A stretch of DNA of 63,738 nucleotides, counting the filler, from Intoshia linei (lineage: Eukaryota > Animalia > Orthonectida): NCBI GenBank assembly GCA_001642005.1. It is 6 parts of 6 records of this genome, joined end to end, with 100 filler letters (N's around TTAATTAATTAA, not from the genome) between each part and the next. Parts side by side here need not be neighbours in the genome. Positions count along the whole stretch, not along the records: positions 37,045 to 56,811 come from LWCA01000718.1; 5 more parts are not named here. The stretch is one strand, 5' to 3'. The notes under the pieces are model-generated. The model was not told where the DNA came from and made no database searches. It saw only the letters and a program-made list of their open reading frames with translations. The translations under genes were made by a program, and so were the position numbers. Below, piece by piece: positions 3,601 to 62,060 of the stretch; within the stretch, counting starts at the first letter, position 1, and each line of letters begins with the position of its first letter.

Positions 3601-6600
3601 AATATCCAGTTTACGAAGAATTATTTGATAAACTCTTGCACAAATCTATTTTAGAAATTAGGATAATCATCATTTCCATGTACAGGCGATACATACAATC
3701 TGTAAAAAAGGTGTACAAATTTATTAAAATCATAACAATTTATATTTTACAAAAACAGTATTCTCTCCATATTTGCCAGTTTTTTAGTTAACCAATTATA
3801 ATGAATTAATTAAATCTACCGTGAAAATTTTTTTTAGAAAAGTATATTTCGAGGATTTTTATTTGTTATAAGTTATGAAAAGTTTTTAATTAAGATTAAT
3901 AGTACTATTAAATACTTATTGATATGTTTTCCGTGGTTATATTCTTCTATTTGACTAAAGGTACTTTGGCATATATACATAATGTCATAGAGAGATAATT
4001 CTGTACAATTTTGATATTTTTAATGGTTTCAATTAGATTAAAGTCTTCAAGCGTCAAAGAAAAATGTCTGCCAAAACATTTAGCTACAAATTTATCAATC
4101 AAGATTTGAATAAAATTGATCATATCGAGGTAAGTTTACATTAAATTCAGTGGTTGTGGACATGTTAGAGTCTTGCATGTGCAGACCCTCTCCAATTATG
4201 ACTTGGAATGTTTTTTAAAATTATTCATTATCCCAGCGTACCCTGCCCTCCATTTAAATATATTTTCTAATTCACTCATACGTACTCGTCACGTACTTGA
4301 ATTTTTTACAATCCGTACATCACAGTAAAGTAGCTTTGCGCTGGTATTGGTGGAATGGTTGTGAACCACTTTTATTTAAATTATTTAACCCAGCGTTTAT
4401 TAAAGTTTTTTTTCAATCTTACCCTGCTGGATTAAAATAATTTCGCTTATGATACGAAAAATGTATCTAGCACCACTTATTGATGTAGAATAGTAGGATA
4501 CATAATGGTCGGTCTAGTCATATGGACCCTAGTCCTCTACAGTGTAGACTCTACTTTACTCTATACGGCTTTGACAATTATAGACATTTTCAGTACATAA
4601 AATCTTTTTTAAAACATAGTCACTTTTAGTTAAGTCATATTTTCAAATCGTCATTGAAAAATACTTTAACTAGTAATATAAACGATAATTCGATAATTCT
4701 ATAATTACATTTTATAATTATAAATAACAAATTGCAAGACATTTTTATCCAGACAACGTTAAATATAATTGGCAAACTCAGACATTTATACCTTCAATGT
4801 CAAAAACATATATTACCATTCTGTTACCCAATATTTTAAAAATTAATTGATTAAAATGAAAAAATATTCAATAATTAGTAAAAAATAATATAAAAATAAA
4901 AATTAGTTTATTTGAAGAATCATAGATACAATAATAATAACTAATAATTGACTTGAAATTTAAATAAACTAAAATTGACTATACTTTTAATTTTTTCTGG
5001 TTACCCTAGTTAATTTAAAAAGTTTTGTAACTATCGATATTCAAATTTACTTAATTTGAATTGTAATTGTAGTATTTTAATCGCGTTCTGATTTCCAAAT
5101 AAAAATCTATACTACACTCCGTCTACTAATTTTAAAGACAACATGATATTATGATATAGCTTCCTTATTAATGAAGGAATATTTTTGAAGAAATTAAAAT
5201 AAAAAGTTATTAATAAAATAGTTAAAATCACAATAAATGACGTGTCCACAATTATAACAACACTAAGTTTTATTATTAGTATTACTAAATAAGTTATATA
5301 ATGATTGTTTTCAATAGTCAATTGGCTTTTCTCCTACCTTCAATACTTCGATTGCACGATTTTGAATTGAGTTTGTCAGTTTAATAAACGTTGCATCAGC
5401 GATGGTCCACCATGTATTCATTATAGCTATTCGTAGTTTACCTAGATTACTATATTGTTTATTTCCAGCATAGAGTTGTCTGACCATGATACCCCATACG
5501 TTTTCAATGGGGTTAATATCTGGATAGAGAGCAGGCCACTCCATAATATTAGTAAAATGATTATTTAAAAACGTTTTTATTGAGCAAGACGTGTGACAAC
5601 TAGCATTATCTTGTTGAAACACTAAATTTTTCTTCAATTCGTCGCTAGTTGGAAGAATAAGAATCAGGTTTTCCTCTAAAATACTTTGGTATTTGATTGA
5701 ATTTATATTACCGTCAACTTTGACAATACACTTAATACCTCCGCTGGAGAAAGCACCCCAAATGATAATACCTCCTCCACCGAACCTTCTATTAACTCTT
5801 TCTGGAATTTTATCACGCAAATCACATCAATAATAATTGTAATAATCTGGTCCATCCAAATTAAATTTTTTCCAAATGATAATTTTGATATCTATTTTTT
5901 TGTTAAGGTAAGCCTCTGCCCATTTTACATTTGCGAACATTGGAAGAATTTGAGGTATCGGGTTAGATCTAACTAGAATAATATTTGGGCTTGCTTTGAT
6001 CACATTATGAACCGAAGATTTAGACACTTTAATCCTTTTGAGCTCATAATTGCAGCAACATCCCTTACTCCTTGTGCAGGATTAATTATGATTAGTGTTG
6101 TTATAATTTTAGGCACGTTATTTAATGTGATTTTAACTTTTTTATTAATAACTTTTATAATTTTGGTTTTTTCAAAAATATTTTTTTACGATGACAACAT
6201 ATTGACATGCTTATATGGCATGTCAATAATCAAAAAAATATATTGACGAATAAGGAAGTTATGTCACAATATCATGTGGTCTTTAAAATTAGTGGACGGT
6301 GTGTATAAACTAGGTTGGTCCAAGTAAATTAGGGGGTACATTGAAAAAATTTTATCTACCTGAATTATGAAATTTTTCACGCTTACTAATCTTTCTCAGG
6401 AATACCAATAGTAACCAAACCTACAGTATTCTAGCTTCAACCCTCCAGTAAATAAAAATAGGGCTAAAAAGTTTTTACAAACTATGTATAGTGTCATGAA
6501 TCCTAGCATTCTCTACCGATCCTCGAATTGATAATTTAAATTTGAGAAAAAGTAGTTATGATATTGAAAAGTATAATTTTTATACCAATTTTCTCCAAAT

Positions 6601-11308: not shown

Positions 11309-14300
11309 AACGAATCTACACTAAAACTAATTGAAAATTTGACTAAATTAAACGACTGCAATGAATTAGAACAGATCTTTTTACAGAAACTCAAATTCGG
11401 AACAGCTGGTGTTTTATTCAAAATATTTATGGAACCATTGTGTAGATTGGTCGGCATAATTTTATTAATTTTCAAAATTTTTCTAATTTAAATACATTTC
11501 GTATTTTTAAAGTTTATTGGACTCAAAAATTGTGATCCTTATCTACATATATAAGTATATAATATGTATGCAATATTTTTTGTGTGTGTGTTACCGTTTT
11601 TTTTCAATAACTACCAGTGTTAGAATTTTATAAAGTCCACATTTCAATTACCGTTTTTTCCGAGGGTGTTAGTAAAATAAATTTCAACCTCCCAATTTCA
11701 CATCTTACGGGTCAAAAAGCCCAATTGTCATTTTTTTTGAAAATCAAACGAGTTCGAAAATTTAAAAAAATATATTCTCTGATACGAATTTTAAAATCAT
11801 AAATATTATCATAAATTTAAATTTGAAAAAAAATATATCTTTAGGGACAAAACCCAAATTACCTTTTTATTTTTAATGAAAACAGTCTTAGATTTTAAAA
11901 AGACACAATGTCTAGTAAAGTTTTTCGAGGGTGAGCTTTTATCTTAAATTTCATTATCAGAAATTGAATCCTGCAGGATCAAAACCAAAATTACTTTTTT
12001 TTAAAACTAAAATGACTTCTAGAATTTTAAAAAAAAATACAACTGATACAATTATTTCATGTTAATAGTCAGAAAAAAATTCATAAAAAATAAATTCTGG
12101 GATTAGGTTTAAAATCCTTAACATTGTCGTAAATACCAGCTTCAGAAACGCACACATTCATGGTGAAAACCCAAAATTACCCTGTTATAAAATGAAACGT
12201 CCTAAAATTTTATAAAAAAATAAATTTTGGGATAGTTTTTAAAATCAAAAGCATTATCATAAATGGCAACATCAAAAAAGTGCATTTCCAAGATGAAGAC
12301 CCTAGATTACCTTTTTTTAAAAATGAAAAAAGTCCTAGAATTTTAAAACAAGTTATAGATGATCAAGTTATTTCAATTTAATAGACAAATAAATTTTCAA
12401 TCTGACAAAATGACGCCTTCACGATCAAAAAAAAACTTTAATATATTTAGATTCTAAAAAATGATCATTGATTGCCATATTTGAAATTTATTAAATTTAA
12501 AGGTATTAACTCATTCTTTTTAATAGGAATTCGCGCTCCAATGGGCCCAGGATTTGGTTGTTTGAACTATCAAACAATTATTGCCATTAGTCGAGTAAAA
12601 TAGTTAAATATTGTAGAGCAGGCATGTCAAGTAAGCTGACTACTGTGGCCTTGTATATTAAAGTATGTAATTAAAATATGTATTATTATTATTATGTATT
12701 AAAGTATAATAATTTTCGTGTCATTATTTACACAAAATAGAATTTAAATTCAATTCAATTTTAATGTATATACAATCAGGTTCGTGTTTATCCAACAGTG
12801 GGTCCGATCAATAAAAATTATAAAACCCTTATATAAACCTTAAAATTTTTGTGTGTTCCTCATCATTATTTAATACAGCGCGTTTCTGCAACGGTTGTAA
12901 ACTTTTTTTCAGCGTTACCCTACCGGAGTAAAAAAAAATCCCCCACCATGCAAAGTTTTTTCATAATGTCACTGTTTGTTTAACCTATTAATTTATAATA
13001 ATATCTCTCGTCATATGAACTTTTATTTCTCTCCAGGATCTTGTATGTAACAGATATTATGTATTTTCTGTTTATTCGATTTTATAACAAAAAATGAGTA
13101 GTTGTGATGTTGACGATGTTCCATGTGACCATGATGAATTTAACATGATTTTTTTTGAGCAATTTGCCCAAACCCAACCCCGTGCCTAGACGATTCTTTG
13201 AACATTTGAGTAGTATTCTCGTTTCCTCTCTTTAAAGATTAAACCAAAGTTAATGACGAATGTACAAGTTTTTTTTATCCACAAATATGTATTTTTAACC
13301 TAATTACCCAGAGCCGAACTTACCCAGCGTGAGGTCACCGAAAATGACAAATAGACCTATAAAAAAATTTTTTCACAACTTATTCATAGTGTCATAAACA
13401 GTAGTCTTAATGTTTCTCTAAGGTTTTTGATTTGATATTTTAAATTTAACACAAAATATTTATGATATTAAAGAATATAATTTTTTTAATGCTTAATTTG
13501 GAAAAGTGAGGCCCCCATTTTTATAAAAATTGAGAAGAAGTGTCTCCGATGTGGTAGGTTCGGCACTGTAATTACACACATCAGTAGGTTAACTTTACAG
13601 TGCGCGACATAAGTCTTAGGCACCCCCATTGTAATTAGTTTAAACAGTTCTGGTTCATGATTTAAGACATTTTCATTAAATTTAATGATCTATAAATAAA
13701 ATATTATTATTTTTTTAGTAAATGACGCGCATAAGTGACGAAAAAAGATGCAATGTTGTTTCCTTATTCAAGGAAGGAAAAAGTCATGTTTTTATAAGTA
13801 AAACCTTAATAATTTCTCGATATGCGGTTCAAAATATAATTAAAAAATATAAAAAGGGGTTAGGTATAGCTGACTTGCCAAGATCAGGTAGAAAACGCAT
13901 GCTAACATTTAGGATAGAGGCTATTATAAAAAGGAATCAATTAAAAACTCATTCTTGACAGCTTTGGAGGTCAAACACCACTCGAATAATTTCAAAAATC
14001 CATTTTTAAGGACATTGCAACGTGTATTATATAGATTTGGATTATATGGAAGAATTGCAAGTCGAAAACCGTTTCTGAAAAAAATACACAGATCAAAGCG
14101 TTTAAAATGGTGTAAAGCAAAAGTGGCATGGACGAACCAATGACAAAATGTAGCCTTTACTGATGAAAGTAGATTTGAATTGTTTTCAAAAAGGAGAGTA
14201 TATGTACACAGGTACACAAGTAGAAGCATAAAACATAGCCAATCAATTATGATTTGGGGTGGTATTAGGGCAGATGGAAAAAGAATATTTATTAAATGTG

Positions 14301-17300
14301 AAGGAGGAGTAAACGCTCAAGAATACGAGAGAATCCTTGGAAAAGCAAATGAGGAAAATTTTATCCATGGAGTGAAGATGCAGCAAGATGGAGCACCGTG
14401 CCACACAGCAAAGACAACCCGCCGATTTATCAGGGTAAATCGTATAAAAACATTAAAAGATTGGTCCACGCCAAGCCCAGATCTAAATATTATTGAAAAT
14501 ATGTGGAAAATTTTGAAAGATAAAGTTTATAAGCTAAATCCAACCAATTTAAAAGAACTGTGGAGATTTATACAAGAAAATGGGACCGAGTACCTCTAGA
14601 AACTATTTAAGTTTTGTATGCCTCATTGCCCAGTAGAATTGCATCAGTTATACAAAATAAAGGATGGAATACTAAATATTAGTAACTTTGTATATATTTA
14701 TCTAATGTTTTCATTTAATTAACATAATTAATTGTATTATTTTATAGGTGCCTAAGACTTATGTCGCTCGGAATTTTGCAATTCTAATTAAAAATATCTA
14801 TATTTCATTAATTATTAAAAAATTTTTATAGTTTTCGCTTTTTTAGGGTTGTTAAATATTTGTTCTTGATCATAAACTAGATATGATATAATAAAATATC
14901 TTAAATCATGAACCAGGAGCATTTAAATTAATTACAATGGGAGTGCCTAAGACTTATGTCGCCTACTGTACTTTAAATACCTTAAAACTTGTCACCTAGA
15001 CAGAGACATAATTTTGTACGTAGTGCAAAAAAGAAAATCTAGTCTGATAAACAAATACAAGTGTATGTGTTATTTTTTAGTGATTAAAAAGTTTTCTAAA
15101 ATTTATAATACAAATCCTAACTTATATAATGTTTGTTTGTCTGTGTGTATTATCGTTTATTTCAATAACTACTAGTCTTAGAATTTTATAAAGTTCAATT
15201 TCAATTACAGTTGTTTCCGGTGTTAGCAAAATAAATTTCAACCGCCCAAACTCAAACCTTACGGATCAAAAAGCCCAATTGTCTTTTTTTTGAAAATCAA
15301 ACGAATTCGAGAATTTAAAAAAATATATACTCTAATACGGATTTTAAAATCATAAATATTATTGTAGTTATATATCGTTACCATACTAATCGAGATTCGA
15401 ATATATACTTTTGATATAACTTACTTGTGATGTCTAACGGGCAGAGTGGTTATAGTCATATAATTATACTCTGCGTGGCTAGGTTCGAATCGAGATTTGG
15501 GCATGTTTTTATTTAAGATAAACTTATCAGAGTTTTTATCTGCCAATCGTTACAATTATCATAAATTTATATTTAAAAAAAATATATCTTCAGGGACAAA
15601 ACCAAAAATTACCTTTTTTTTAATGAAAACAGTCCTAGAATTTAAAAAAATCTGCAGGTGGTACAGTTGTACCCTATTAATACACACAAAAAATTTCTAT
15701 CTGAATAAGTTACGCCTTTATGGTGAAAAAAGCAGTTTAGTATTCATATTTTTTTTTTCAAAATATTTAATTAAAACAAAAAGTGTGAAATATTTAACGA
15801 TCCGAAAATTATAAAAAATGATTATTCTGATAGAGCTTAATCCAGTTGATATAAATACAAAATTTCAACCACAGACATATACGCATTCCCGGTAAAAAAT
15901 AATTTTGAATATATTATCAACCAATATTTTTTAAATATTTCGATTAAAATAAAAATTGAAAATGTAAATATTAATCCTAATATTTCAAAAAAAAATGTGC
16001 ATTGAACGGCTACACATTTTCAATAAAGAGATATGAGTGAAAATCTATATAAATTATTTTTTCGTTATTTTTTTCATTGCTACGCAATTTTTCAATGTCA
16101 AATTCTCATTTTCGGCAGAGCTAGGTGCTGTTTGTACGTAGTACATAACAGTCAACCTAGTGTATAAAATATAAATATGACACAGCTGAAAATTTTTCGT
16201 AATAATCCATGAAATATGAATTTAGTTTGACATGGCTGTTGTACAATACTATTAAAACGTATTATATAATAATTATTTTTAAAATAGGCATTTGCTTTTT
16301 ATTTAAATACGACTCAAACCCCTAATATTTTAATTGGATATGATACAAGACATAATAGTAAAAGGTTTTCAAAATTTAAAAAACTTTCAATATCAATGAA
16401 TACATAACGAATTTAGGTTTGCTGAAATATGTGGTTTAATAATGCATTCAATGAATGTAAAAACAAACTTATTAGAAAAATATGTCCCAACACCATTAAT
16501 AGTAAACTTGATCATTTTAGTGTTTTATAAATAATAATGTCATCTTTTATAGCAATGGTCGCCAATTATTATATTCAGTGTCATTTCTGGAGATTTAAAA
16601 AAGTTCGGGCCCCTTTGGAAAAAATTTATCGAGAAAAATTTTTTTTAATTTATTAAAAATGCAGAATACTACACTATCTGAAGAAATCAAATATTTTATC
16701 TCGTTCCACTCAGTTTGAACACTGAGTTATAGAATTAGTTGCATTATAATGATTATATACATTTAATAATATGATTATTTAGAGTTTTGGTGTACCACAT
16801 TTTGGATACCATTGGGGAATAATGATTACCGCTTCTCATAACCCACCCATAGATAACGGTTTTAAAATTTACAGTAAAAACGGACAACCAGTAATATTTA
16901 AACCCCATTTTATACGACTTGTGCTCATAGATTTTGAATCATATTGAAACAATTATAGAAAATAATATTAATTTTGATTTTGACAAACCGTATATTGATA
17001 AAATTATCAAAAATTCTGCAGATATATTCCAATTGATCCATCAACAAGATGATGAAAATTTAATCATTAATTTAAAAGAAATAAAACTGGCATACTATAA
17101 CGAAATTGGGTTGTTTTATAATAAATTGTAATTTTTTATTAATTTTAAGCAAAATTAAAATATATTTAAATAGAATTCAAATTGACAAAAACCAGACAAA
17201 AGTAGTATATAGTGCATTTCATGGAGTTGGAAAAATTTATGTTGAGGAATCTTTCAAATATTGTGATATAGATGCTTTAGTTTTTACTAGTAGTCAAGTA

Positions 17301-30704: not shown

Positions 30705-33700
30705 TCAGGATTTTTTGTTCCAATAATGTATTATTTGATAAAATAACATTCCATTGCAAAAACTTAACACTGTTACATTTATCAGGTATAAAGTATCGAT
30801 ATTATCACACAGTACAGTGATAAATCGCACAAATGATCCAATGAAAATAAGTCCTGTTGTAATCGCAGATAAATTTCCAGTTGATTTGTTGTTAAAATTT
30901 AAATAAATTTGTATCAACTAAAAAATACATAATTAAAAAATGGGTTATTAATTATAAATACAACGCAATAGTAAAATTTGATATATTCGTTATAAAAAAA
31001 AACCATGAAATTTAAATTAAAAAAATAAAGTACCATTTAACATTGTGCGTTAATTTTTAATTTAAAATTTCAATTTAATTATATTAAAATTACCCTTGCT
31101 AAACTTGCTGTGACAATGGAAGATGCTTGTAAAGTTATGACCAGTATTTCTGGTAATACGGCAATATAATTGTACAAATTAAAAAATACTGTAAAGATTG
31201 ATGAAATTATTATTGTTTTGGAGATTGGCAGTCGGTAGTAACAAATTAAAAGAAAAACTATTACATTTTGGATTAAAATAAAAACAGATTCTCCAAATAT
31301 TCTAAAAATATGAATTTCAAAGATATTTTAGAATATTAAAGAATTATCAAAATTTCAGATGAGGAACCCAACACTATACATTATTTGCTTTGTGGAATAG
31401 TCACACCTTAACCTACCAAAGGTAAGTTACCGCACGATAACTTCTTTGATCATCATTTTAAAATCATTTTAAAATGTCAAATATAACTATTTGACGGGTA
31501 AAGTCTTGGATTCCAGACCCGTGCACGATGTATTATATATTTAATTTAATTTTTAAGTTTTGTTAACTATTTCTGTTTATTTCAATTTTTTTAAAATTTG
31601 ATAACCGGGTATCCAGCTTTATTAACACTAAATTAATGATTAATGCAAGCTCTACTTGTTAAAAAAATGAAAAACTGCTTAAAGAGAAACATTTTTGAAA
31701 CGATACTGTCAAGTTTTATCCCTAAAGAATTGATAAAAATAATTATACCTTTATATGATTAAGATAATACAAATGTCTAAAGTCGACACTAATTGTGATC
31801 ACATTTTATGTACATTTTTGTATATTGGTTTGTCAACATTTTAAAAGTTACATAAATCAGCCTCAGTGGTTGCAAACTTATCAAAATGCCCGTAGGGGAC
31901 ATTAATGTAATAGATGAGAAATTTTACTTAAATCTTGAAGCAATTTTTTTTAAAATCTCACTATATATTTATTCATGTTATAATACATTTACGTGATATT
32001 TTCAAAACTCGCTATTAAGCGTAATACAGTCTAAGTCAGTAATTTCCAACTATGTGGGTATTTACCCACAAGTGGGTAATTTCACATTTTTCATGGGTAA
32101 TCGCGAAATTTAATGAAAAATAGGATTTTTTTTATTTTTTTGCGCGCATGCACAGTAATGTATAAAATATAATTTTGACATTGAAAAAAATAAAAAAAAA
32201 TTCCCTTTTTTTTTTTTTAAATAAAATCAGCCCTATAAGATAAATAAATGATTTTATTATTTTATAAAATTAGTTTTTTAAAAAATTTATATGGCTTATT
32301 CTAAAAACCTGACCATCCAATATGCAGTTAAAACATATTGTGGGTAAGTATAATTGTACTCTAATATGGGTAATCTAGTAAAAAAGGTTAAGAAACACTG
32401 GTCTAAGTCCTTATTAACGGTTTCCTTTTTAATTCCGTTAATATGATATTTTACCCATATTAACACACTTGTTAACGGAATTTAATTTTTTAATTAAAAA
32501 CTATTAAATGGTAATATTTCTTTTATTTTGAGTTTTTTAATAATACATGACAATGTAATATACACAAAACATTATCAATGGGTCCGTATAGACTCCTTGG
32601 TCAACAGCAGTTTTTTTAGGGTCCTTGAAAAGTTTTAAACTATTTACAGAAATAAAATAAAGTTAAAAATGATGTTTCTGCACTGATATTAATATTTTCT
32701 AATTAACGCCATCTAACTGAATATCTATTAAAAATTTGATAAAAAACCTGGTATTTTATACAGGGCTGTTCAATAAATTAGCATGATTGTTAAACTTTTG
32801 ACCCATATAAGATGAGATGGACATTAATCTGATGAATTTTAATTTTATTGATGAATAACATCGAGTGATCACTACCAAAAGGATGTTAGTGAAAAAGTGC
32901 GTATTAAAAAATTCACATCATGGAGAGAAATTATAAAACGTGGATGCAATAATCAAAAATAAAACTTTAATCGTTGTTGAATTATAATTTTTTGCATTCT
33001 TAGGTATATTATTATTTCTAAAAATATTTAAATTTTTATCATTCAGTATGGGTAAAAGACAAGACATTTCTTCAAAAAAAAGACACCATAATCGTTATAC
33101 TGCAAACTTCTAATTGGATACAAAAAAAAGTAGCTGATGTAAACGGTGTGTCTCAGTCAGTAGTATCTATGTTAAAAAAAATCTTTGGAAGGATATCATC
33201 ATATTTCTACTTCAAAAAGGAATAATTGTGGGAGACAAAATCCACTAATAAAAAAACCGATAGAATAATAGTGAAAACTTCTCTGAGATCTTTTAAAATT
33301 ATTTGTAAACTTACCCCATTTTTATTGTTTCATATTTCATTTTATGAATTAAAATTATTATAAATTAATTAAATTTGTTAGTTTTAACATAATTTTTTGA
33401 GTAAAGATTTTTTTGTGCGACTCGTGTAATAATTTTTTTTCACATTTGGCCCGCCAAGCAAATTGAATCTGACACCCCTGTTCTAGAGCTTTAGAGATAA
33501 AATTTTTATTAACGGAATTTTTGGTTCATACAAATTCGTTAAGAAAAAATACATAATTCTAGATTTCGCTAACAAAAATTGTGTTAATAAGGATTTGACT
33601 GTATTTAAAAATTTTATTTCACGTAAATGGCTAAAGTAGACTGAAAACAGGTTTTGGAAGAGTGAACGAATGAACCATTCACATTGAATACCATTTTATT

Positions 33701-44205: not shown

Positions 44206-44945
44206 TTATTCATTTAAACTTAAGAATTTTATTAATAAATCTTAAATCGAGTATAGTAGCCATTTGTAAATTTACTCCAATTCTAGGTTATAGTAACAAA
44301 CATAAAATTTGTATCGATTTTGAAATACAAAAATTTAGATTTATACTTTTCTTTGCTAAAATATAAATGATACAATTTGTAATGATTCGTGTTAAGTTTT
44401 ATTCAATAATACATACATATATTATATAAACTGTTTAATACACTGTAAGATCACTAGAAACCAAAAAAATCGTGATTGTCTATGAAATTCAACTGAAATG
44501 AAACGACTATTCGTGTTTTGATCGAAATATGAAATTACAGTTTCATGCCATGTGATTCTGAGTCAGAATCATTCTGATTTTTTTTTTTAGAAACGTCTTC
44601 CATGCATTGAATATTTTTAACGTTTTTCTATTTTTCCTTTTTATTTATATTTAGATGTGTAATACACATTGTGTATCCATATCTGTTAAACAACATTCTG
44701 ATCCATATTTAAAGGGTGTATTAAAAACTGTTTTCAATATTTTTTTTATTGTTAAAAAATTTCCATCACTTTGTTCACAGTATATGATTTCTTTTACTAT
44801 GTTTGAGTAATTTTTAAAGTACGATATGCCGTAATATATCCCTGACTCGTACTCAATCAAATTTTTACAGTGATCTCAAAATATTAAATGCAATTTTTTT
44901 CCCATTAAAGTGGGAATAATTGAAATACAATCATTAATGTAAGAG

Positions 44946-45030
44946 CAGGGGTGTCACACTCAATTTTTGGCGGGCCAAGTGTGACAAAAAAATATTATGC
45001 TGGGCTTACAAAAAATTATCTTTACTCAAA
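44946..45030. mobile_element. hAT Charlie-like terminus (same family end at 33400-33480, opposite orientation)
   Basis: 'caggggtgtcacactcaatttttggcgggccaa' matches the reverse complement of 33447-33480. Confidence 0.7.
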
Positions 45031-45183
45031 TCATTAATAAACTAGCAGTTTTAATTAATACAATGAAATAAGAAACAATAATGGAATAAATGAATAACTA
45101 ATGCTAAAATTGTAATCAGGAATAAATAAATTATGAAAACTATGTAAAAAATTGTTTAAAATATTGTTAAAAAATAGGTTGTT

Positions 45184-47252
45184 TTGGATATAACTTCGAA
45201 TACTATGAAGTTCCAGTTGAAATGGAAGGGAATTGATCATTCCGGGCCTAAAGTGAATACTGTGGCCGGTAAATCTCCTGATCTAAAAGAAATAGTCGAA
45301 AAGGAGTGGGCTAAATCCACCAAGGCATATTTGTCGAATAAAACACGAAAGGTGGTGGATTTGGGCGCTGTGGCGCCGGATATGAAATACATCGTCGAGA
45401 AATTTCCCGATGTATTTGATTCAAGGCCAGGCCGAACAAAGGAGATCGAACATGAGATTAACGTGATTCCCGGTAAGGAACCCTATCGGGGCCCGGTATA
45501 TGGGGCACCTGGTAACTTGAGAAATAAATTACGTGAACATATTGAGGAAATGTTAAAGTTGGGGATAATTGAGACATCCCGTAGTAATTGGCGAGCTCCT
45601 TTTATGTTAGTGCCTAAGAATGGCGGTAAGGATAGATTCGTCGTAGATTTTAGGGGTTTAAATGATTGAACTGAAAAGAATTTGTTTCCTACCACAAATC
45701 CCACTGAGATGTTTGATCAGTTGAAGGAAGGTCGGGTATTTACCACGATCGATTTGAGTAAGGGATTTTGGCAAGTTCCTTTAAGACCAAGTGACCGGAA
45801 ATACACGGCATTTGCCACCAGTGGGTTGGGCTTAGGTAACAAATTATTTCAATTTAAGGTACTTCCCTTTGGTCTTAGCAATGGTCCCTCAACATGTCAA
45901 AGGTTGAGTGATCGAATTCTGGGTGGAATAGATTGTGCCGTCGCGTATATGGACGATATAATAGTATTCTCTAAATCGCGCAAGGATCACAAACGCGACG
46001 TAGAAGGCGTAGACGCGCGTTGTCAAATTGTAAAGACAAAGACTCGTAGTTACCACCACGAAGGAGTCGGGCTGTTGAGAGATTAAATAGAACGATAAAG
46101 AATCGCTTAATGCCACACCTTTAAGGTCGTTTTGATCGTAACTGGGATCAAAAATTACTAGAGGTATTGTTCGCTATTCGCAACACGGTTTCAGTGGCTA
46201 CTAAGAAAAGTCCGGCCCAAATGGTTTATGGAAAGAATCTAGATTTACCGTGGGATGCCAATAGGACAGGGGTGGTAGTGAATGATCAGGAGCTGAGGAA
46301 CGTGGGTAAATATTACCGGGCTATTATGTCGAAAAATTACGACAAGACGGTTCCAAAACAGCAGGATGTAGAAACGAGAAACTATCGGAATAATGACCCT
46401 GTCCTGGAAAAATTGGATCAGCGAAAGCGGAAAATGTTGGAAGGAAAGAATGATGTTTTCGGCGGGTCGGAGCCAATAGACACTACTGGAAAGTTTTTTT
46501 ATTGTAATCGCGGAGAAATAGAAGGCGATTTTATGGTCAAATGCGATCGATGTAGAAAATGGTTCCATGGTCAATGTGTTGAATTGACTAAAACCGAAGC
46601 AGATAAGTTGGATACTTTCTGTTGAAAGTATTGCGTAAGGCAAAATGGCGCCAGGCGTCGAAGATTACCTTCGAAGTTTAATGATTATATTTTGAATTTT
46701 AAATCTCGCAGGGTAAATAGCAAAAGGATAGATTGCGAACAGTCTGCTGGCCACACACAAAGGATTTGTGATAAATGTGAAGAGGGCACGCAGAAAGTGG
46801 ACAATTTATGGTGCATAATTTGTAGGAAGAATTTCTATCGGCAATGTTTAGCATTGGGTAAGAATATGGTGGGGTGGAATTTATTTGTCTTAACTGCGAA
46901 TATGATGAGGAAGCAGCTGAGAAAATGAGAAGACACCGTTATAATATTAATTATAAGAGAAGTTGAAAATCTTCGTATCAAAATTTCATCAGAGAGTTTG
47001 AAATCTTAGTATCAAAATTTATTTTGGAGTTTGAAATCTTCGTATCAAAATTTTAGTGGTTTTATTTAGAACGTGTTCGAAATGAATGGATCAGCGATCG
47101 ATCTTGGAGGGAGATGTAATAATAAAGCTACAGTATCCAGAGACACTGTTCACTTTATTAATAACCCACTGAAGAATATCACAATTGTAATTTTAATTAA
47201 ATATTTAATTGAATATCGACTTTAATCAGCTCGACCTCTTCGATCCATTACA
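45184..47252 (+). mobile_element. Ty3/Gypsy LTR retrotransposon remnant: RT, partial integrase, two PHD fingers, polypurine tract (PPT) and 3' LTR
   Basis: RT 'WRAPFMLVPK...RFVVDFRGLN', 'IDLSKGFWQV', 'LPFGLSNGP' and 'YMDD'. Integrase end 'ERLNRTIK...WDQKL..VLFAIRN...TKKSPAQMVYG'. PHD at 46490-46634. PPT ggagggaga at 47106-47114, then TGTAAT...ATTACA (47115-47252). Confidence 0.92.
46964..47056 (+). repeat. ~34-bp tandem repeat, about 3 copies, in the Gypsy 3' UTR
   Basis: gaaatcttcgtatcaaaattt core repeated three times. Confidence 0.85.
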
Positions 47253-48473
47253 ACCGTAACCATATTTTACCAAACTGACACTCACTACATTGTGTATTTG
47301 TGTCTGGGTCAAAAATAATTAATTCGACTTCAGGTAACAAAGAAGGAACCGCATACATTTTAATTAAAATACAATCACTGTCCTTATCAACAATTTAAAT
47401 ACGTTGATGCGTAACGATTGGGCATAATATAAATTTCATTTAGAAAATAAAAATAAGGATTATTTAAACATATAGCGTATTGCATTGACAACTACATTTA
47501 CAATTGTAAAGCATTTTTAATGATGATTGGAGTCGATCCGCAAATTCCATAATTGGGCGCCGTATAATTGACACTTCTGTGTAAGGGGCTTCTTTTCCAA
47601 TTTGAATATTTGATAATTTTAATGATTAGTTTTACGTATCATTCAATCTATGTATATTAGGGTGTCACATTTTTTCGAAAATTTTGGAATTTGATAGATG
47701 GTTAGCACTAACCGTGTGTATTTTTAAAAAAGAAACTATAACATAATCAAAAACCACTAACGATAGATATTCGCTGTGCGTTTAACATTTTAAATAAATC
47801 ATTACAAATCTTATAGTAAAATTAAAATATAACTTAATTTTTGTTAAAAACAGTGTTATAGTGAATTGTCATGATTTTCAGAGTATTATGTTAATCACCG
47901 TTTATAACTGACATCTTACTTTTTTAATTTTTATTCTAGCTGTCTTAGTTCGATTTTTATCAACGATTGAATTTCTTAAATTTAGTAAATTTTAGTGTAT
48001 AAATGTAAAGTGAAAAAAAAATTTAGAAATTTCATTTAATAACACAAACATAAACACAAGTAATACTAAAACATCGTGTATATTATTATTAATTTATTAT
48101 TGATGCACGATCGAAAATGAACAATAGACCAAAAAAAAATTTTTTTCACTAACTATGCATATTGTTATATAGCCCTAGCGATCTCTCAAAGGTATTGACT
48201 TGATATTTTAAATTTAACACATACATGCAGTTATGATATTCAAGAATATAATTTTTGATTCATTCGGAAAAATGATGACCCCTTTTTACAAAAATTTCGT
48301 CGAGCTCCCCCCAAGAGGGGCTAGAGTATGTTAGGTTCGGCAATGTATAATATACAGTGTATATATGTATTCCAAATGAAACCCAGTTTTAACGGTTACC
48401 ATTACACAATTGTAGTTTATTTTTAGAAATTATTTGCTCATAGAAAAATAAAGTTTAGCTTTGAAAAATTGAA

Positions 48474-54100: not shown

Positions 54101-56811
54101 TCAGTAATTATAATTACTGAGTCGGTGAAATCACTAATATTTATTATAATTTTATAAAACATTTTATTTAGAATATTTGGGATGTTATATAGTTAATTCA
54201 AATTGTTATCGGAAAAAAAATTACATACACAATGATAAGCATAATGACTTTCATCATCATCACAATAATATTAACTATCGAATGTTCTGCAAAGATAATA
54301 CACAAGGTTAATATTTAGTATATATATTATTTAATAATAATAGTAGAATAAAACAGTCTTTCCCAATGTGAGATTTAGTTTTTTTAATAGGCTACCAGAA
54401 TGTTTTAAAAAAATCAATAGATAGATTTTTTACATAGTGGTATATAATTATATATACTAGTGTAGTATAGTTTTTACTAGGGCTTGGAAATAATTGATTG
54501 CAATCAATTATTTTATATACAACAATTAATTGTTTGCTAAATATTAATTTTTCAATTGATTGATTTATATAAAATAACTAGGTTGACTGTTATGTACTAC
54601 GTATAAACAGGACCTAGCTTTGCCAAGGGCACATTTTTATTATACTTAAAAAATAAATTTATGTTGAAAATCTAACTTAAAAATCCTACTATTCACGATT
54701 ATCAATCCTTTAAAAGAGTGTTTCCCAAACTTGTTTCAGGTGGAACCGTCATATCACATTACTTTTTACTTTATTTGTAAAATTATTCCATCTTAATTTT
54801 GTTTTGCTAACATTTGAGTAAAGAATTATAAAAACAATTTTTATCCCATTTTTTTAATTTATTAGACAGAATGTGTGTATAATATTAAAAATAAAGTAAA
54901 AACAGTCCAATCCTAAAAATTGTCATAAATAGCATAAATTCCAAAAAAATAAAATTAGTCCATTCCTAAAAATGGTCATAAATAGCATAAATTCCAGAAA
55001 AAAGAAAATTATAAAAACCTATTTTGTCATTTTTAATGTGATGATATATTCAGTACCAATTTAATAAATGCTTAAAAATACCAATTATGTATCAATAATT
55101 AATTGTTTTTTTTACCAATACGATGGAATCCGCTTATAAGAGACGTCCGGACATAAGGGACAAAAAACTAGGAACGGAATCAAACGCTTGTTTTGTATAT
55201 AAATCACAGACGGATATAATGGAAAAAAATCCGCTTATAGTGGACAGGTCAAAACAAAGTGTTTTGAAAATGAATTTAATAATAATGCTTGGATGAAAAA
55301 ATAAATTTTTAAACAAACAATTAATTGATTTTATTTTCAATAATTTTTATCAATTAATTCCAATCCCTAGTCCTTAGTATGGATGTTATAATTGTTTAGT
55401 TTTCAGTGGACAATGTCCATTGTTTTACTCCAATGATGGTTAGTTGTGGACAGGCCCAATGATTCATTAATATTTTATTTACTACTTTAAATAATTATAA
55501 TACTTATAAATATATATACATATTTATTATTGTACATTATATAATTATAATATGCATAATTAATCCGTTTTCACGATGTTTGTCTATTAGCTAAGAAATA
55601 AATCGTTCATATATAATATTTGACTAGAAATGAAGGATTTGATTAAATTCTACAGAAACATTTTATTATATTGTCATTCATTTCGATGTAAAGGAAACAT
55701 AGCCTATGTTTCCTATGCTACATAGGTCATAAAAATTATAATTAAAAATAGAAAAAATGATTTACATACATGTAATACCATAATTTAAATATAAAATATT
55801 CTCAAAGGATTATTAATCATTGTCTCCAGTCTTTGAGGGCGAGCTAGGCTTTATAATTTTAATTCTTCATACTTTAAATCGAAATTAAATACGTTATATC
55901 GAATATAATTTAATTTACTTACTTGCATTAATTAATTTTTCACATTTGCAATTATTTTATGACGAGGCCTGGTTGTGGATACCGACTCTTCATTAAATAA
56001 ATATTTACATTGAATTAATAAAAAAACGTATTTTTTTTTTTTTTTTTTTTTTTAANNNNNNNNNNNTTTTTTTTTTTTTTTTTTTTTTCTAAAATTTCAT
56101 ACAATACGTTCCACTACAATGTAGCTAAAAATTTTTATAATTATAAATATAAAACAATTTAGATTCTTCAACGATGATAACTGAAATACCAGTAGATACA
56201 ACCATAATGTCACAATCCACACAACAACCTTGGGTAACTGATCTATGGATACCTGATACCACGCAACCACCGTGGGTCACTGATCCATGGCCACAAGATA
56301 CAACACAACCACCTTTGGTAACTTATCCATGGCCACAATACACAACACCAACACCGTGGAATCCTGATCCATGGCCACAAGATACAACACAACCACCGTG
56401 GGTCACTGATCGATGGCCACAAGATACAACACAACCACCTTGGGTCACTGATCGATGGCCACAAGATACAACAAAACCACCGTGGAATCCTGATCCATGG
56501 CCACAAGATACGACACAACCACCTTGGGTCACTGATCCATGGATACCTGATACCACGCCACCACCGTGGGTTACTGATCGATGGCCACAAGATACAACAA
56601 AACCACCGTGGAATCCTGATCCATGGCCACAAGATACAACACCTACACCGATGAATCCTGATCCATGGCCACAAGACACAACACCAGCACCGTGGAATCC
56701 TGATCCATGGCCACAAGACACAACACCAGCACCGTGGAGTCCTGATCCATGGCCACCAGACACAACACCAGCACCGTGGAATCCTGATCCATGGCCACAA
56801 GACACAACACC
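51181..56811 (+). CDS. Secreted or cell-surface leucine-rich-repeat protein (LRRNT, >20 LRRs, LRRCT) with a Pro/Thr/Trp repeat stalk; 3' end lost in a gap
   Basis: Signal peptide, 'CPIRINNCYC', many LxxLxLxxNxL repeats (exons 51181-51423, 51464-~52494, 52540-52982, 53841-54071) and 'ANNPFICDCNLQWM'. Exons ~54172-54306 and 56163 onward join with matching phase 1. Confidence 0.85.
54478..55369. mobile_element. TIR element (hAT-Ac-like ends) with a nested minus-strand Helitron 3' part (54579-~55110)
   Basis: Ends tagggcttggaaataattgat / atcaattaattccaatcccta. 'a|ctaggttgactgttatgtactacg' at 54579. TSD is degenerate. Confidence 0.6.
56219..56811 (+). repeat. Coding minisatellite, 36-bp / 12-aa unit (WPQDTTQPPWVTDP / NPDP variants), at least 16 units
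   Basis: Repeats of tgatccatggccacaagatacaacacaaccaccgtgg are directly visible. Confidence 0.95.
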
Positions 56812-56911
56812 NNNNNNNNNNNNNNNNNNNNNNNNNNNNNNNNNNNNNNNNNNNNTTAATTAATTAANNNNNNNNNNNNNNNNNNNNNNNNNNNNNNNNN
56901 NNNNNNNNNNN

Positions 56912-60674: not shown

Positions 60675-60760
60675 CAGTGCCAGATATAAGTCTTAGGCAC
60701 CCCAATTGTAATTAATCTAAACATTTCTGGTTCATGAATTTAAACTTTTTCTTATATCAT
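60675..60760 (+). mobile_element. Isolated terminus of the 13598 Tc1 family
   Basis: TA|cagtgccagatataagtcttaggcaccccaattgtaatta...ctggttcatga. Confidence 0.85.
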
Positions 60761-60811
60761 ATCAATACCCAAACGGTATCACATCAACGGGTCACAAAAC
60801 GGTATTATTTA

Positions 60812-60960
60812 ATGTTCTAACAAAATTAGAAAATTCTGGTTTAACATTGAAACCAAAAAAATGTCACATTGGAAAAAGTCAAGTTAAAATTTTAGGATAC
60901 TTCATAAGTAAAGATGGTTTGCAAGCTGATCCTGACAAAGTAAACACAATACAGTCATTA
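60812..60960 (+). mobile_element. Gypsy RT C-terminal fragment
   Basis: 'VLTKLENSGLTLKPKKCHIGKSQVKILGYFISKDGLQADPDKVNTIQSL'. Confidence 0.85.
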
Positions 60961-61060: not shown

Positions 61061-61621
61061 AAAAAAAAAAAAATTTGAAATAATTAACTGATACAGCTTA
61101 CTCCAGTGATATAAATACAAATTTTTAATTCCAGAAATCTACCCATTACCGGTAAAAAATAATTTTCAATCAATATTTTTCAAATGTTGGATTAATATTT
61201 AAAATGTTAAAATTTTTTATCTTATATTATTTTTTATTTGTTATTGAAAGCAGATACTGAATATACAGTTGATTATACTGTATATTATCACATTGAAAAT
61301 AACTAAATAGGTTTGGAAATTTTATTTTTTTTGGAATTTGTGCTATTTATGATAATTTTTAAAATTGTTACAACACATTCTGTCTAATAAATTACAAAAA
61401 TGATATAAAATTGTTTTTAAATTCTTTACACAAATGTTAACAACAAAATTAAGACGGAATAATTCCCTTTATAGTAAAAGGTAATATGATATGACGGTTC
61501 CACGCGAAATAAGTTTGGGAACCACTTTTGTAAATGATTGATAATAATTAATAGCAGCAAGTTAAGTTAGATTTTTAACTTGAATTTATTTTTTGGTAGA
61601 ATTAAAATGTGCCCTCGGCAG
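61061..61621 (+). mobile_element. Helitron long-subfamily fragment, truncated just before the 3' hairpin
   Basis: Matches 57090-57948 with deletions and ends at 'tgccctcggcag'. Confidence 0.7.
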
Positions 61622-62060
61622 AATTTCAAAAACAGTCGATAAATGAAAATATGATCCGACTCAGAATCAGAAGCAACGAGAATATCATCCATGTATACAT
61701 ATACGAATGGCAAATCAAAAAATAATGAGTCCATTAAACGCTGACAATATGCCGGTTCAACAAGGTTCAATAATGTCAAGTTTTAATAACTTCGTAATTT
61801 CTTTCTTTATTTCAGACTGATCAGAATAAGGCACTCTCCAGATACCAGATTTCCAAGGATGTGACTCTTCTATTAAATCTATAGAACACAAGGCTGACCT
61901 AGATTTCCCTGGAATGTTGCTAAAAATTTCTTGATAAAAAAGAAGTAACGGATTTAGAAATTTAGCTGCAGAACCCCAATTCGACGATTTATTTTCAGAA
62001 TTGGAATAATTAGTTTCCGTAAAATATTGGTCATTCAGATCAGAAACTATATCTGCCAAT
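61622..62060 (-). mobile_element. Gypsy pol fragment, internally deleted RT
   Basis: 'CSIDLIEESHPWKSGIWRVPYSDQSEIKKEITKLLKLDIIEP' joined to 'PAYCQRLMDSLFFDLPFVYVYMDDILVAS'. Confidence 0.85.

Follow-up and report, generated by a model that had tools for sequence, protein, structure and literature searches.

Ty3/Gypsy elements of the orthonectid Intoshia linei carry a PHD finger at the end of their integrase, and this finger is real, conserved and widespread. Judged by sequence, it belongs to the BPTF/PHF2/DIDO class, the subfamily of H3K4-methyl readers. The copy described here is dead; the reading that we favour with moderate confidence is that the integrase-terminal PHD of its family likely tethered the integration complex to H3K4-methylated nucleosomes.

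Structure and decay of the Intoshia relic

The window, as we call the whole 63.7-kb stretch of I. linei DNA that was analysed, contains a GC-richer island at about 45180-47250 that is the relic of a Ty3/Gypsy element. It begins on the plus strand with a reverse-transcriptase (RT) remnant (45178-46011, +; Pfam RVT_1, E 2.6e-25) that comprises a linker and the RT domain to about 15 codons past the YMDD motif, with one in-frame stop at 45667-45669. This remnant is of Gypsy type, being matched by 31/31 Gypsy pol proteins in tblastn. At an approximate deletion junction (46005-46027, +), pol homologues skip from about RT residue 476 to integrase residue 1040 of P0010, and tblastn shows the loss of the RT C-terminus, RNase H, the integrase zinc finger and the greater part of the catalytic core. 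The C-terminal part of the integrase core follows (46027-46256, +; tblastn, integrase profile at 45 bits and alignment to sister models) and is broken by a frameshift (near 46070) and by a stop codon (46122-46124). The succession of RT and integrase end is that of Ty3/Gypsy, and an RNase H-H2C2-integrase-PHD order is found in the Intoshia model P0042.

From position 46125 to 46622 a frame without any stop leads from the end of the integrase core into the PHD finger (tblastn and blastp to Gypsy pol ends; Pfam), as an earlier note on this DNA had proposed, and the peptides quoted in that note are present where it placed them. The integrase tail and linker (46257-46493, +) have no module recognisable as SH3-like or GPY-F with an SH3 profile. 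Finger 1 (46494-46634, +) was identified by Pfam PF00628 (E 3.1e-8, 33.9 bits against a cut-off of 24), by PDB matches and by a PHD profile. It is followed by a basic, R-rich P-x-K-F-x-D-Y motif (46653-46688, +; motif comparison), by a second Cys cluster with PHD-like spacing (46767-46897, +) whose last Cys pair lies in another frame ending at 46966, and by three tandem repeats of 33-34 bp in the 3' untranslated stretch (46961-47053, +; repeat comparison).

The element appears to close with a candidate polypurine tract (PPT), a 9-nt purine run (47106-47114, +) that is one of two purine runs of at least 9 nt in 46900-47600, and with an unpaired candidate 3' LTR of 138 bp recognised by its end motif, TGTAA...TTACA (47115-47252, +; for LTR end motifs see PMC3601003). 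A lone 3' LTR at this place is plausible. No LTR pair was found within the whole window, and the relic has no 5' LTR, gag or protease. That an LTR-bounded unit holds both Cys clusters was not confirmed; downstream of them lie the candidate PPT and 3' LTR. Internally deleted, the copy cannot transpose. The public gene model at the locus, P0035, is a pseudogene artefact of 286 aa, labelled 'PHD-type domain-containing protein', that splices together upstream flank, an RT piece and an integrase-PHD piece; several sister models, such as P0042, are probably artefacts of this kind too.

Other mobile or repeated DNA was seen elsewhere in the window. Decayed Gypsy RT scraps at 60750-60960 (+) and 61600-62030 (-) share no DNA similarity with the relic, fragments of a DDE_3 transposase lie at 5314-5826 (-) and 14144-14596 (+), and a 42-bp tandem array at 56135-56848, beside an assembly gap, encodes a Pro/Thr/Trp-rich repeat.

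The second Cys cluster had been described as a second decayed PHD finger. Its Cys spacing does not look like chance: it has a sole match on both strands of the 63.7-kb window and occurred in 0/20,000 simulated 489-nt tails, for a pattern picked after seeing it. Against its identity as a PHD, it scores 5.4-6.8 bits on the PHD profile, where background reads reach up to 10.7, has Tyr in place of the His ligand, and lacks the cage Met and Trp. The best Pfam match is sub-threshold (PHDvar_NSD, E 0.002-0.01) and the best PDB match is an MLL3 PHD (E 0.055). We considered a recent duplication of finger 1 and rejected it, as the two have no DNA similarity. Nor did two fingers hold up as a lineage trait. 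The other Intoshia models that reach past finger 1 showed no second finger, although frameshifted parts could be concealed in such models, and none of the 43 marine loci (see below) with at least 500 nt downstream has a second cluster after the PHD. The cluster is probably a real but decayed, subfamily-specific zinc finger, not expected to read methyl-lysine.

A family feature with marine relatives

Finger 1 in the window retains 6/8 ligands; the first is a Phe (46497-46499) and the seventh a stop codon (46623-46625). Sister copies have Cys at both broken positions, in agreement with the proposal that two single-base reversions would restore a C4HC3 finger, and the full C4HC3 ligand set is present in the relatives P0038, whose finger spans about residues 160-212, and P0050.

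Searching 1.84 billion representatives with phmmer yielded 667 matches at E <=0.001. Among the best 150 of these 667, profiles detected a pol domain in 16 and a pol domain together with a PHD in 12. The names of the top matches mark them as Intoshia linei gene models, namely P0035 at the window locus and 10 others. In 5/10 of the latter (P0038, P0039, P0042, P0044, P0061) a pol domain is joined to a PHD; P0036 is a sister copy, 88% identical, that reaches the start of the finger and has Cys at ligand 1, and P0050 consists of the finger and tail motif only. The five pol-PHD models, P0036 and P0050 all lie on contigs of differing size. The integrase-terminal finger 1 is therefore a family feature of Intoshia elements, as the earlier note supposed, and not a one-off. 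It is conserved like the integrase end, and more than tail or linker: identity to P0038 is 28/46 in the finger, 23/40 in the integrase end, 17/53 in the tail and 0/7 in the linker. Fingers of the Intoshia subfamilies are 15/46 to 28/46 identical, with the cage Met kept in 7/7 and the cage Trp in 6/7. The R-rich P-x-K-F-x-D-Y motif was present in the window and in the 5 Intoshia models checked, and in 0/4 marine pol-linked proteins. An SH3 profile gave 47-54 bits on two marine relatives against no more than 2.1 bits on any of 10 Intoshia sequences, and no Chromo match was found in the window ORFs or in the 6 Intoshia models scanned.

The same PHD subclass sits at the integrase end of a marine Gypsy family with the order integrase-SH3-PHD, seen in the Mytilus models P0047/P0192, in P0054 and P0200 and in loci L002-L053. 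P0200 is a complete PR-RT-RH-IN-SH3-PHD pol whose finger, at about residues 1243-1291, is naturally intact. Metagenomes were scanned with the pattern CxEW[YF]HGxC and the best 80 of 502 loci were kept; the PHD lies behind pol domains in 52 of these best 80, and 51/52 of the pol-linked loci have the cage Met, a residue that the search pattern did not impose. In a circular marine unit (L003) the PHD comes after RT and before the PPT-TG, which places the finger inside the element in the marine family. Unlike the Intoshia elements, the marine family has kept the SH3 module, ends its pol at the finger (0-21 residues beyond it in 8/8 loci read), lacks a second finger and has an additional ORF. This ORF follows pol, is about 700-1100 aa long and has a TatD DNase domain at its end (Pfam; L002:6627-9347, L003:2691-5018, L015:5650-7785 and other marine loci). 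The domain scored E 1e-27 to 1e-39 in the 3/3 marine ORFs scanned with Pfam, tblastn found the ORF in 15/16 marine loci with 3 kb downstream, and in L003 it precedes the PPT. Its novelty may exceed that of the PHD. Neither the SH3 module nor the downstream TatD ORF was found in the Intoshia elements compared.

Some searches returned little. Word-based protein searches with the integrase-PHD part as query gave 0/242 candidates, with a cut-off that was too strict, and 0/5 candidates; no relative of the Intoshia integrase-PHD was found in viral contigs. An Atlas search returned an 80-member PHD+rve cluster (score 0.79), which is a lead only. A giant-virus-like contig (L001:5629-6138) has a PHD ORF of the same subclass adjoining a DNA adenine methylase-like gene, unrelated to the Intoshia element.

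Trees place the eight Intoshia integrase ends in one clade (SH-aLRT 99), and in the joined tree the Intoshia and marine groups are each supported (99 and 100). AU tests gave p 0.67 and 0.55 for a union of Intoshia with the marine family. The Intoshia clade falls outside the chromoviruses in free trees, which included no named reference elements, and the AU p for a union with them was 0.63. P0042 left the Intoshia clade in the joined tree and was excluded from the AU tests giving p 0.55 and 0.63; some trees were built without the long rows P0033 and P0027. The RT, integrase and joined trees would thus allow a union of the Intoshia elements with the marine family and with chromoviruses alike. 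A further element, P0009, has a Gypsy pol ending in SH3-chromodomain-PHD and groups with chromodomain elements. Its PHD is of a different subtype, 20-27% identical to the Intoshia fingers, which suggests that it was gained separately.

Predicted mark and proposed role

The solved fingers nearest to finger 1 are those of BPTF, PHF2 and DIDO, and the top PDB matches of both the window finger and the intact P0038 finger are all H3K4-methyl readers. Published criteria for such readers are an aromatic cage with an invariant Trp and an acidic pocket for Arg2 (PMC3241642). The cage positions in finger 1 are Phe 46494, Glu 46515, Met 46533 and Trp 46560; the aromatic residue (Phe/Tyr), the Met and the Trp, together with an Asp after Cys3, fall at positions aligned with BPTF and PHF2. 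An AlphaFold model of P0038 has a pLDDT of about 78-85 over the finger, and Foldseek with this model puts BPTF, PHF2 and Cfp1 on top, in weak agreement (E 0.008-0.02). Sequence class and predicted fold thus both bear out the H3K4-methyl-reader pattern that had been noticed. A phylogeny of PHDs rested on about 50 columns, too weak to name the donor gene.

The claim of H3K4me3 reading survives as to the H3K4-methyl class; strict me3 is too specific, as the cage Glu suggests K4me2 or me2/3. Finger 1 is predicted to have bound H3K4me2/3, leaning to me2 because a Glu replaces the cage residue Tyr17 of BPTF. The Glu is found at this position in 7/7 Intoshia fingers, which are related and hence not independent, against 16/198 fingers from proteins in which no pol domain was detected; the marine family has Asp, Trp or His there. 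BPTF Y17E is reported to prefer Kme2 over Kme3, and acidic cage residues do not always yield Kme2 selectivity, as in TAF3 and Sgf29 (both in PMC4589357). The best PDB match of the window finger is 2RI7, the BPTF Y17E mutant with H3K4me2.

In the mechanism that we favour, the PHD at the C-terminal end of the integrase would dock the integration complex on nucleosomes methylated at H3K4, and this binding would, by analogy with chromoviruses, bias insertion to open, gene-flanking chromatin. By the same analogy the PHD may have steered the insertion of new copies. Against tethering, P0037, P0041 and P0068 (3/10 Intoshia models) have an integrase without a PHD. The finger may have been spliced out in these gene models, or it may be dispensable.

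The genes flanking the relic are indeed divergent, as had been claimed, with an alpha2delta-like VWA/Cache gene on the minus strand (start 44205) and TRAP-delta on the plus strand (start 48474), and the relic lies about 1.0 and 1.2 kb from the two starts. Promoter targeting is not supported by this one case, an insertion in an intergenic interval shared with two unrelated repeats. The first, at 44942-45059 (copy at 33364-33484), starts CAGGGGTGTC, sits where the 5' part of the Gypsy element is lost, and presumably resembles the end of a hAT-type element; the other is a dispersed repeat at 48112-48312 with copies near 6466, 13339 and 38745. Not every copy has a divergent-promoter setting, as the annotation fuses P0042 to the 3' end of an ion-channel gene. 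For Gypsy-7a_cRei of Chlamydomonas, insertions are enriched in intergenic DNA, and the authors could not separate targeting from selection (PMC9940879).

Other roles for the finger have to be weighed against tethering. It might read H3K4 methylation for another end, such as general chromatin holding or expression of the element from its own locus. This account draws on the same sequence evidence as tethering, post-insertion selection can mimic targeting for readers borne by transposable elements (PMC6673714, PMC9940879), and the TatD nuclease ORF of the marine family illustrates that accessory modules with other roles occur. The PHD nevertheless sits where the chromodomain sits, which is reported to direct integration (PMC6673714, PMC12440569), and we regard a non-targeting role as rather unlikely. 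Improbable in our view is that the finger was captured as a structural or non-histone binding module in place of the SH3-like tail, with a cage likeness inherited from the donor. Intoshia copies do lack a recognisable SH3/GPY-F module, non-histone partners are possible for PHDs (PMC3241642), and the PHF2 PHD also binds a non-histone peptide (title of PDB 7M10; PMC3241642). Yet the cage Met and Trp persist across Intoshia fingers that are only 15/46-28/46 identical, and marine relatives have retained both SH3 and finger.

A one-off chimera, in which a dead Gypsy fragment abuts a piece of a host PHD gene, would suit a badly deleted copy without an LTR pair. It is largely refuted by the sister copies, since an 88% identical one at another locus shares the tail that leads into the finger and pol is joined to a PHD in five further models, and we hold the chimera to be extremely improbable. 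Tethering, our preferred reading, could also be cast in a much more specific form, in which an orthonectid Gypsy lineage traded its SH3 tail for a 'Y17E-type' H3K4me2-reading PHD, with a second finger in a subfamily, promoter-flanking insertion in a very compact genome, and a gain separate from that of the marine family. This full scenario we consider unlikely.

Relation to known chromatin-reading elements

Chromoviruses have a histone-mark reader, the chromodomain, fused to the C-terminus of their integrase (PMC12440569, PMC6673714). The Intoshia element shares with them the Gypsy pol order and a reader at the integrase C-terminus, but it uses a PHD of the H3K4-methyl class, whose predicted mark is one of active chromatin and not of heterochromatin, and no SH3/GPY-F module is recognisable. 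PHDs are common accessories of transposable elements, discussed alongside chromoviruses (PMC6673714, PMC8557442, PMC12440569, preprint 10.64898/2026.05.21.726589). Gypsy-7a_cRei has one in its Gag-Pol, proposed to affect insertion, which according to the figure legend lies between RH and INT, and its host is a green alga, not an animal (PMC9940879). It is like the Intoshia element in having a PHD finger within a Gypsy element. In REM1, also from a green alga, the PHD is reportedly encoded in a separate antisense ORF.

The DNA transposon Ginger1-9_HM has a PHD among the C-terminal domains of its Gypsy-integrase-like transposase (PMC2836005). It differs in having terminal inverted repeats and Ulp1, whereas the Intoshia element has RT and a PPT/LTR-like end; membership in Ginger1, which has no RT and has terminal inverted repeats, was rejected since RT lies in the same unit as the Intoshia integrase-PHD. 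CopiaMBD is an animal LTR retrotransposon with a captured host chromatin reader proposed to guide insertion (PMC6673714); it is a member of the Copia superfamily that recognises methylated DNA, and binding data exist for it.

The novelty is smaller than the earlier note suggested. We found no description of an integrase-terminal PHD in an animal Gypsy element in the literature searched, with Repbase, GyDB and subscription journals outside its scope, and the accessible parts of PMC5408684, PMC3286476, PMC4255032, PMC6431247 and PMC5890265 do not mention a PHD in Gypsy elements; published cases are, however, the finger in a Gypsy Gag-Pol and the one in the Ginger1 tail.

The copy in the window is dead and adds little by itself. 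The choice of insertion sites by LTR retrotransposons is understood for few families. Both lineages have naturally intact fingers (P0038, P0200), and the cage residue differs between them: Glu on the Intoshia side, and Asp, Trp or His on the marine side. If integrase-terminal PHDs do read H3K4 methylation, animals would have a widespread active-chromatin counterpart to chromoviruses.
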